From assembly GCF_002854065.1 (NCBI RefSeq), contig NZ_CP024147.1: a DNA stretch of 64,000 nucleotides; one strand, given 5' to 3'. A model generated the notes under the pieces. The model saw nothing but the letters and a program-made list of their open reading frames with translations, ran no database searches and had not been told where the DNA came from. The first letter of the stretch is position 1. Each line of letters opens with the position of its first letter. This document shows positions 29,627 to 61,017 of this stretch, piece by piece. The DNA is from Escherichia coli. GTDB taxonomy: Bacteria > Pseudomonadota > Gammaproteobacteria > Enterobacterales > Enterobacteriaceae. The position numbers and the translations under genes are program-made.

Positions 29627-30334
29627 ATGAATACCCAACTTAAATACGGGAGAACCTGGCATTATCCTTTCTCCCCCGGCACCACCAGCGATGACCGCAT
29701 TAACGCCGATTACTGGCAGGATTTACAGGCCATCGCGCAACTGGTGCATACAGAAAAACTCGACGGCGAAAATAACTGCCTTAACCGCTACGGTGTGTTT
29801 GCCCGTTCCCATGCCGCGCCTACGCAGTCGGCATGGACCTATAAAATTCGCCAGCGTTGGCAACTGCTGAAAAACGATCTCGGCGACCTGGAGTTGTTTG
29901 GCGAAAATCTCTACGCCGTTCATTCCATTGAATACCGCGCGCTGGAACAGGACTTTTACCTGTTTGCCGTTCGCTGCCAGGATATGTGGCTGAGCTGGGA
30001 AGAGGTGCAGTTTTACGCCGCCCTGTTTGATTTCCCCTGCGTTCCCGAAATCTCCGGCCCGCAGCCGGGGAATGATGAAAAAAGCTGGCAACGTGATTTT
30101 CTGGCACTGACCAATGCGCGCGGCGCGTTCGATCCCTGGGATACACAAACCGGGCAACCCTGTACTCTGGAAGGCATTGTCAGCCGGAATCGTGATGCGT
30201 TTTCCGTCGCTGACTTTTCGCATAACGTCTTCAAGTATGTGCGCAAAAATCATGTCAAAACCACTGTGCACTGGAAACGACACTGGCAACGGGCGCGGAT
30301 GGCCCATGAGTTCGCTTATGGAGAACAGTCATGA
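29627..30334 (+). CDS. ATP-dependent RNA ligase-like nucleotidyltransferase (Rnl2-type catalytic domain only)
   Basis: 235-aa ORF with covalent nucleotidyltransferase motifs in canonical order and spacing: motif I EKLDGEN, motif [12 protein letters not shown], motif IV LEGIVSR, motif V FKYVRK. Confidence 0.75.
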
Positions 30335-31443
30335 TTTGGCAGCTTACCGACGATAAACGCTGGTCGACACTACGCCAGCGTTTCAGTTGGGTTGAGGAGA
30401 TGCATCACACGCCACAAGACCCGGAGCATCATGGTGAAGGTGACGTCGGCGTGCATACCGAAATGGTGCTTAACGCCCTTGTTACTCAGCCAGAATTCCA
30501 GCAACTCCCCGCTCAACAGCAGGAAGTTTTATGGGCGGCGGCGTTATTACATGATGTTGAAAAGCGCAGCACTACCGTGCAGGAAAACGGACGTATTCAG
30601 TCGCCGGGCCATGCTCGTCGGGGCGAACTGACGGCCCGGCTGATTTTGTGGCGCGATATCCCAACGCCGTTCGTGCTGCGCGAGCAAATCGTTGCGCTGG
30701 TGCGTCTGCATGGGTTACCGCTATGGTTACTGGAACGTCCGGAACCGGAGCGTTTGTTGCTCACGGCTGCAATGCGCATCGACACGCGTCTGCTCACTTT
30801 GCTTGCTCGTGCCGATCTGCTTGGTCGCCAAAGCCCGGATCAGCAATCAATGCTGGAACGCATCGATCTGTTCGAGCTGTTTTGCCAGGAGCAACAGTGT
30901 TGGGGAAAAGTGCGCTCGTTCGTGTCTGATTCCGCACGCTGGCATTACCTGACCCATGAGCAAAGTTCTCCTGATTTTGTTCCCTGGGAGGCTGAACCTT
31001 TTGAGGGCATTTTGCTGTGTGGCTTACCGGGTATGGGCAAAGATCGCTATATCAATGAACAGTGCCAGGGAATGGACGTTATCAGCCTTGATGATATGCG
31101 GCGGCGAATCAATGCCAATCCGGACGACAAAACCGCCACCGGGCGTATTGTGCAACAGGCAAAAGAAGAGGCACGCGTTTTTTTACGCCAGAAAAAGCCG
31201 TTCATCTGGAATGCAACGAACTTTACCCGCCAGCTTCGTAGCCAGCTCATCAGCCTGTTTACGGCTTACGGCGCACGAGTAAAAATAGTTTATCTTGAAG
31301 TGCCATGGGCGCAATGGAAGCAGCAAAATGCCAGACGCGAGTATGCAGTTCCTGAAGCGGTCGTGATGCGGATGGCCTCAAGGCTGGAAGTTCCTCAACC
31401 TGATGAAGCACATAGCGTGGAGTATCGGGTGATTGAAAGGTAA
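30331..31443 (+). CDS. Bifunctional HD-domain phosphoesterase / 5'-OH polynucleotide kinase (HD-Pnk architecture)
   Basis: 370-aa ORF; N-terminal HD metal-ligand pattern ([18 protein letters not shown], further His and Asp); C-terminal P-loop GLPGMGKD followed by [17 protein letters not shown] and [16 protein letters not shown], resembling the T4 Pnk kinase domain; start overlaps upstream stop (ATGA). Confidence 0.75.
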
Positions 31444-31448
31444 AAAAA

Positions 31449-31474
31449 CCGGGCGGTGGTGTCACCTGCCCGGC
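31449..31474. terminator. Bidirectional hairpin terminator between HD-Pnk gene and convergent luxS
   Basis: ccgggc-loop-gcccgg stem flanked by A-run upstream and T-rich run downstream. Confidence 0.6.
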
Positions 31475-56891: not shown

Positions 56892-59782
<2,891 letters not shown>

Positions 59783-59789
59783 GCAACCG

Positions 59790-59875
59790 TGCCGGATGCG
59801 GCGTGAACGCCTTATCCGGCCTACATAGTTCGTGCGACATGTAGGCCCGATAAGCGCAGCGCATCGGGCAATCTG
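59790..59875. repeat. REP elements downstream of ascB
   Basis: gccggatgcggcgtgaacgccttatccggcctac and gtaggcccgataagcgcagcgcatcgggca. Confidence 0.85.
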
Positions 59876-59896
59876 TGGATTGGCATCAGTCAAAAA

Positions 59897-60314
59897 TCAA
59901 AGAAACCATTCAGGCTTAACGCCAAATCGGGCTGAAAGTGCCTTAATGTGGGATATCGTCAGGGATCGTTGTCCAGACAAGATCTGGCTGACCAGGGATT
60001 TAGAACCGATTTCGTTCTTCAAATCCGCATAGTCAGATTATGTTGATCAATCAGCGTACGAAGTAACGCTACGCCAACCGGCATTGCCGCAACGGCTTTG
60101 TCGAACTCTGCAAACTTTTCGTTGTTGTTTTCATATTCTGCAATGCGGCTCGCCAGAAAGTCGATAAGTGGATTGGTGTCATCTTCTTCAATCAATATTC
60201 GACCAGTTCCAGTGCTTCACGATAATCATCTTCTGAGTCACTGCCTCCCAGAAAGGGGACTGCATTGACCAGTTCTCTTGTTGCTTTAACAGCGCGTGCA
60301 GCATTAGCAGTCAT
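59897..60314 (-). pseudogene. HigA-like (HTH-XRE) antitoxin gene remnant with two frameshifts
   Basis: Three reading-frame segments together resemble E. coli HigA: MTANAARAVKATRELVNAVPFLGGSDSEDDYREALELVEY / LIEEDDTNPLIDFLASRIAEYENNNEKFAEFDKAVAAMPVGVALLRTLIDQHNLT / YADLKNEIGSKSLVSQILSGQRSLTISHIKALSARFGVKPEWFL. Confidence 0.6.
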
Positions 60315-60549
60315 TCTTTGTTCTCTCTGTAGTATCGTATCAGACGCCCACTTTTCTAAAATGCCAGGTTTGCTCGGCATCATAAGGCATGGTCAGGAGA
60401 GGTTTCAGCGCCCGCTTTTGCGCATATTCGCTGTCACTCATTGGCAGATATTCGGTAAAGCTGGTGGCCTGTGCAGGCAGCACTAAGCTCAATAAAAAAG
60501 CGCACATCCCTGTTCTGATGTTCAATTCCCTGAATTCCCTAATGAAGAA

Positions 60550-61017
60550 TTATTCTTCCACCGCTAACTGCGCGAAGCCGCCGTTCCCTTCCCAGCCTTC
60601 CAGTCGTTGATAAACGGTTTCTACCGCATCTTTAATCGGCTGTGTCATCGGGTAGTAAAAGCCGACGATATCCGGCTGGATGCCGAGGAAAATCACTTCG
60701 CCAATATCTTCTTTCAACTGATCGATAAGGTAGTTCAACGGCATGTTATGGGTAGTCATCATAAACATCTCGGCGATATCATCCGGGTCGATGATGCGGA
60801 TTTCGCCGGGGTTTAGCCCCATATCCGTGGCGTCGACAATCAGCAGTCGTGTCGGGCGCAGTTCACGGATAGCGACGATGTCGTTTTCCGGTGCGCTACC
60901 GCCGTCAATCACCACCCAGTTACCTTTCGGCGCGGCAGCGCACTTTTCCGCCAGCAGCGGGCCTGCGCCATCATCGCCCATCATGCTATTGCCAACACAG
61001 AGTAAAACGTCAGTCAC
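60550..61017 (-). CDS. hycI: Hydrogenase 3 maturation endopeptidase
   Basis: 155-aa [34 protein letters not shown]... Confidence 0.95.
   Translation of the reverse strand: MTDVLLCVGNSMMGDDGAGPLLAEKCAAAPKGNWVVIDGGSAPENDIVAIRELRPTRLLIVDATDMGLNPGEIRIIDPDDIAEMFMMTTHNMPLNYLIDQLKEDIGEVIFLGIQPDIVGFYYPMTQPIKDAVETVYQRLEGWEGNGGFAQLAVEE

Follow-up and report, generated by a model that had tools for sequence, protein, structure and literature searches.

The closest described system to the locus considered here is the HigB-HigA pair of Escherichia coli K-12 (YgjN/YgjM; PDB 5IFG, 6KML and 5YCL), in which the genes stand in inverted order, toxin first. HigA of E. coli binds its operator as a dimer, whether HigB is present or not (PMC10135005). 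Orphan antitoxins are remnants of degraded type II modules with a possible anti-addiction role (review PMC7354431), and section 4.2 of that review summarises a survey of them in Klebsiella pneumoniae. Degraded toxin-antitoxin loci with orphan antitoxins are a well-described class. Searches of the literature turned up no publication describing higBA between hycI and ascB.

We have analysed such a locus in one stretch of E. coli DNA, hereafter the window, which is 64,000 nucleotides long. We consider that positions 59897-60549 are very probably the non-functional remnant of a chromosomal type II HigB/HigA module, a paralogue of K-12 higBA (ygjN/ygjM), that decayed by a deletion and then by frameshifts. 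Roughly half of E. coli genomes have the module, placed between hycI and ascB.

Methods

Frequencies in the population were obtained by megablast against 5,426 complete E. coli genomes. The query for each lesion was 52-54 nt long and centred on the lesion, and with a 28-nt megablast word such a query matches only genomes that share it.

Results

Neighbourhood of the locus

The spacer between ascB and hycI is 767 bp long and holds the higA remnant and a 61-aa reading frame (Table 1). The window also carries hycH, hycG and hycF on the minus strand. The part of the spacer query that covers the REP-type palindromes was matched in 5,425 of the 5,426 genomes. An Rfam scan of 59500-60800 found no small RNA and returned only a sub-threshold match to naRNA4, a REP-derived nucleoid-associated RNA, at 59777-59821 (41.9 bits, below the gathering score of 59.5), which reflects the REP palindromes beside ascB.

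Table 1. Features of the hycI-ascB region in the window
Feature	Position	Strand	Remarks
ascF	56892-58349	plus	
ascB	ends 59782	plus	
REP-type palindromic spacer	59783-59896		between higA stop and ascB end; aligns to the K-12 spacer
higA pseudogene	59897-60314	minus	418 nt, the intact 420 nt less two bases
higA start and original stop codons	ATG 60314-60312; TGA 59899-59897	minus	
higA segment 1	60314-60195, stop 60194-60192	minus	MTANAARAVKATRELVNAVPFLGGSDSEDDYREALELVEY, then stop
higA segment 2	60194-60032	minus	(L)IEEDDTNPLIDFLASRIAEYENNNEKFAEFDKAVAAMPVGVALLRTLIDQHNLT, i.e. (L)IEEDDTNPLID...LIDQHNLT
higA segment 3	60031-59897	minus	YADLKNEIGSKSLVSQILSGQRSLTISHIKALSARFGVKPEWFL, then stop
Frameshift 1	60194-60195	minus	TTT in intact alleles, TT here; gene nt ~120-122, codon 41
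Frameshift 2	60032	minus	CC (codon 95, ACC) in all other alleles, single C here
higB remnant, last 33 nt	60311-60343	minus	LIRYYRENKE and stop; aligns to L002 1501-1533
Deletion junction	60344/60343	minus	GGCGT/CTGA
61-codon reading frame	60340-60525	minus	5' stump of the 253-aa exported hypothetical gene
hycI	60550-61017	minus	hydrogenase 3 maturation protease, last hyc operon gene; ends 24 nt before the stump reading frame

At some distance from the locus, between emrB and luxS, the block at 29627-31443 on the plus strand holds two genes, which are named "RNA ligase family protein" and "ATP-binding protein" in the annotation of strain 100416. This block looks like an accessory insert, and it had no match in PADLOC. 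Just after the reading frame that ends at 31443, the window and strain 100416 differ in a run of T (T7 against T8, near 31449).

Structure and family of the higA pseudogene

A three-frame translation of the minus strand gives three consecutive higA segments in three different frames. When they are joined, the repaired protein has exactly the sequence of WP_000126294.1, the intact 139-aa HigA that other E. coli encode. Aligned as DNA with the intact allele of strain 20KM2222 (L002), the window higA differs by two 1-nt gaps and eight synonymous changes, with no non-synonymous change. The earlier note had described a HigA-like antitoxin of the HTH-XRE kind interrupted by at least two frameshifts. 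Its identification holds, and so do the interruptions; the alignment to intact alleles refines their number to exactly two 1-nt deletions.

The resemblance to HTH-XRE antitoxins is far above chance. The repaired and intact HigA matched Pfam HTH_3 (PF01381) with E=7.9e-9 over residues 85-138, and phmmer against the PDB aligned residues 9-138 of intact HigA with HigA of E. coli K-12 (5IFG_B) with E=2.5e-35. NCBIfam gave no meaningful match for HigA, HigB, the 253-aa protein or the fragments in the window, so that the naming of HigA and HigB rests on Pfam and the PDB. In the window, an uninterrupted frame for the whole protein is absent, and a stop follows codon 40. Judged on its reading frames, the window higA is a predicted pseudogene of the HigA family and would not be a functional member of it.

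Loss of the toxin gene

In other E. coli, the order at the intact site is hycI, a 253-aa exported hypothetical gene, higB, higA and ascB. Strain 20KM2222 and Nissle 1917 show hycI, the hypothetical gene (251-253 aa), a HigB family toxin gene of 312 nt and a higA of 420 nt. In intact alleles higB lies immediately upstream of higA, its stop overlapping the higA start as ATGA. The HigB of these alleles matched Pfam HigB_toxin (PF09907) with 4.5e-23 and K-12 HigB (5IFG_A) with 4.5e-22 over residues 1-100.

BLAST of the window against the 20KM2222 locus revealed that the window lacks L002 469-1500, a deletion of 1,032 bp. Lost with it were codons 61-253 of the 253-aa gene, the 173 nt that separate this gene from higB, and higB itself save for its last 33 nt; no microhomology is evident at the breakpoints. 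Accordingly, where a HigB_toxin gene would stand immediately upstream of higA, the window keeps a 33-nt remnant, the stop of which still overlaps the higA start as ATGA. These comparisons with intact genomes bear out the earlier suggestion of a decaying toxin-antitoxin locus with an orphan antitoxin.

The intergenic region upstream of higB (L002 1049-1221) lies wholly inside the deleted interval, and the higB promoter is presumed to lie there. A sigma-70-like match at L002 1122-1150 was at chance level only, as were the promoter and terminator scans of both the window and the intact locus. Upstream of higB, the intact locus showed no palindrome, inverted repeat or operator.

The 61-codon reading frame beside higA

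The earlier note had pointed to a 61-aa reading frame at the position of the toxin, with a signal-peptide-like N-terminus and without toxin similarity. This reading frame exists, and its N-terminus looks signal-peptide-like by eye (MNIRTGMCAFLLSLVLPAQA/TS), but it is no substitute for the toxin: it is a stump that the 1,032-bp deletion brought beside higA. All 61 residues are the same as residues 1-61 in the 253-aa protein of 20KM2222. The 253-aa gene supplies the first 60 codons. The junction runs through codon 61, which as GTC still encodes Val, and sequence on the higB side provides the stop TGA (60342-60340).

Considering that the 61-aa product is identical to the N-terminus of the 253-aa protein, it would not be a toxin, and the reading frame appears to be a by-product of the deletion rather than a gene in its own right. 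The full-length 253-aa protein, which is named "putative periplasmic/exported protein" in some source records, belongs to no NCBIfam, Pfam, PHROG or PADLOC family. It could be proposed that the stump now acts as a small secreted protein, or as a novel toxin that partners higA: the frame is open, it keeps the signal-peptide-like N-terminus, it lies 24 nt downstream of hycI and could be co-transcribed with the hyc operon, and many genomes have it annotated as a hypothetical protein. We regard such a function as extremely improbable, however, because the codons and the stop have the origins given above, the 61-aa reading frame has no match in NCBIfam, and the protein varies among carriers of the deletion (R4K, G60D, E51D/T53N) where HigA is invariant.

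The two frameshifts

Frameshift 1 brings a TGA (60194-60192) into frame right after codon 40, which gives a 40-aa product. The 52-mer across the site matched 2 of the 5,426 complete genomes, strains 100416 and CUWW06, and in both PGAP labels higA as "frameshifted". The 40-aa product specific to this frameshift has been called on 326 contigs of public assemblies, and in the places shown it is followed, save in one contig-end fragment, by a 99-aa second piece with HTH_3. Since independent assemblies carry the 40-aa product, frameshift 1 is a real and rare lineage marker.

Frameshift 2 splits the HTH_3 domain at codon 95. The corresponding 53-mer had no match in the 5,426 complete genomes, no match was found in metagenome contigs, and the reading-frame products specific to it are absent from a collection of 15 billion proteins. 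Because it was found nowhere else, it represents either a mutation private to this sequence or an error in the sequencing. If it were an error of sequencing or assembly, the strain would really carry the allele with frameshift 1 only, as strain 100416 and others do, and would encode the 40-aa N-terminal piece and the 99-aa piece with the HTH. Besides its absence from all these collections, the CC that the near-identical relatives all carry at the site speaks for an error. However, over 49.7 kb the window shares 99.952% identity with its nearest relative, strain 100416, and differs from it by 22 SNPs and only two indels, so that the assembly is not prone to indel errors; frameshift 2 is the one of these two indels that lies in a coding region, the other being the T7/T8 difference near 31449. 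Moreover, CC is no long homopolymer, and a private neutral mutation is to be expected in a higA that was already dead. We therefore consider an error somewhat unlikely and frameshift 2 probably genuine. The caution of the earlier note, that the frameshifts might be assembly errors, bears on this second frameshift alone.

Lineages that diverge by about 1.7% over 2.5 kb (GCA_974495845.1 versus L001/L008) share both frameshift 1 and the 1,032-bp deletion. Between these lineages higA shows six synonymous and no non-synonymous differences; within a 277-nt tract around frameshift 1 there are no differences, and the flanks have diverged. This pattern suggests that frameshift 1 may have moved between lineages by recombination.

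On the one hand, the same observations invite the reading that the frameshift-1 allele is alive. Coupled re-initiation at TTGA (60195-60192), in which a TTG overlaps the new TGA stop, would then yield a 40-aa and a 99-aa product, the latter serving with its HTH as a DNA-binding regulator. Gene callers predict the 99-aa frame with HTH_3 directly after the 40-aa frame, and frameshift 1 occurs in the divergent lineages without further disruption and with synonymous differences only. On the other hand, the six differences are all confined to the 3' half of higA, and a difference-free tract amid diverged flanks fits the recombinational spread of the frameshift onto old polymorphism rather than continued selection. 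The inference of selection on a split HigA from the six synonymous and zero non-synonymous differences was rejected as unsupported, for the differences cluster outside the identical tract. There is also no evidence of a ribosome-binding site for the 99-aa piece. Accordingly, a living split HigA seems very unlikely, and it would concern sister lineages only, because the second piece in the window is itself broken by frameshift 2. We retain the reading of frameshift 1 as an inactivating change.

Distribution of the locus in E. coli

The spacer megablast showed that the hycI-ascB site is polymorphic among the 5,426 complete genomes. higA is present in 2,508 of them and higB in 1,092, which leaves about 1,416 genomes with higA and no higB, so that the orphan is commoner than the pair. 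The deletion junction of the window (54-mer) occurs once each in 644 genomes, including O25b:H4-ST131; in the ST131 carrier higA is intact and encodes WP_000126294.1. The loss of the toxin is thus old and shared.

An independent higB deletion of 412 bp, first seen in O39:NM (L004), is found in 503 of the 5,426 genomes and leaves both the 253-aa gene and higA intact. We rejected a derivation of the window deletion from this allele, since the window keeps the intact-type CTGA at its right breakpoint and the 412-bp allele lacks it. The right-hand ends of the two deletions (L004 2321-2335 and window 60343/60344) are separated by only about 6 nt and fall just 5' of the ribosome-binding region of higA; in front of the higA start, both deletions keep about 30-36 nt. 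These near-coincident ends could be due to chance, to a hotspot, or to selection that keeps higA translatable.

K-12 MG1655 has an "empty" site, a hycI-ascB spacer of 158 bp (L005 3416-3573, corresponding to window 59890-60528). In it the two ends of the 253-aa gene, 5' (ATCAGGACAGGGATG) and 3' (TTCTTGATGGGGTGAACCAG), are joined at a direct repeat, GGGATGTGC, which is found at both gene ends in intact alleles; the site lacks higBA between ACTGA(C/T) repeats or microhomologies. Because both ends of this gene have left scars in the spacer, the K-12 state is derived by deletion and not ancestral, that is, another deleted state. In the B2 strains Nissle 1917 and ST131 the asc operon is absent, and higA is followed by a small hypothetical gene or a DUF4259 gene and then by hydN. 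The ascB side of the locus is therefore variable as well.

Discussion

The alleles described above can be arranged into a history of decay. A single illegitimate 1,032-bp deletion, a step documented in the population, left an intact orphan higA that is now found in hundreds of genomes, including ST131. The loss of a T from the TTT run in a minor lineage, likewise documented, then truncated HigA after residue 40. Finally, a C would have been lost in codon 95, a step seen in the window only, with the helix-turn-helix domain split as a result. We infer that higA, with no toxin left to neutralise, became dispensable and has been decaying neutrally in the lineage of the window, and that positions 59897-60549 would yield no functional antitoxin, repressor or toxin.

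Among six higA alleles, 21 of 22 segregating sites are synonymous, which points to strong purifying selection in the past, and since the window shows no non-synonymous change, its disruptions are recent by comparison with that long history. Orphan alleles encode a HigA identical to that of intact pairs despite synonymous DNA divergence of up to 3.6%. To treat orphan antitoxins as dispensable may not be right in general, because the orphan higA stays intact and unchanged in protein in lineages without higB.

It could be, then, that orphan higA is kept by selection elsewhere, either to neutralise incoming plasmid HigB (anti-addiction) or as a regulator in its own right, transcribed by read-through from the hyc operon. 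In its favour, higB has been lost at least twice independently, the two deletions end within about 6 nt of each other, the orphan is commoner than the pair, and its protein is unchanged. An anti-addiction role in other lineages is conceivable, because enterobacterial plasmids carry relatives of HigB of up to 78.6% amino-acid identity. In tblastn, 1,046 plasmid records matched HigB at E<=1e-5; a near-identical HigB was found on no true plasmid, the single 96% match being a 4.9-Mb chromosome filed in the plasmid collection. We consider retention of the orphan for a job of its own unlikely. If it were true, the lineage of the window would be a natural knock-out of that function.

The feature in the window is an ordinary pseudogene of a kind already known, flagged as "frameshifted" in near-identical genomes, and by itself it matters little. 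Its value lies partly in annotation: the 61-aa (or 55-aa) "hypothetical protein" of hundreds of E. coli is the deletion stump of the 253-aa gene, and the adjoining "helix-turn-helix domain-containing protein" is an orphan HigA. In addition, a single species here displays toxin-antitoxin decay at several stages, and the locus could be used to test whether selection maintains orphan antitoxins. Recurrent loss of the toxin, an orphan commoner than the pair and an unchanged orphan protein make this a modest lead at the population level.

In comparison with known systems, the intact allele resembles K-12 HigB-HigA in having the same two families in the same inverted order, and the likeness of the two HigA proteins includes the C-terminal HTH. 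K-12 HigBA is nevertheless a paralogue at another site, and the alignments show many substitutions; unlike it, the window has lost its toxin by deletion and carries an antitoxin frameshifted twice. The HigBA modules on plasmids of Enterobacter, Leclercia and Klebsiella have HigB homologues that are each followed by an HTH protein, whereas the locus of the window is chromosomal and toxin-less. Like the orphan antitoxins of review PMC7354431, as its section 4.2 presents them, the window higA was left without a toxin after a canonical module had degraded. Unlike that class as summarised there, the intermediates can be read in the E. coli population, from the intact pair through two independent higB deletions to the frameshifts, and the orphan in the window is itself dead.
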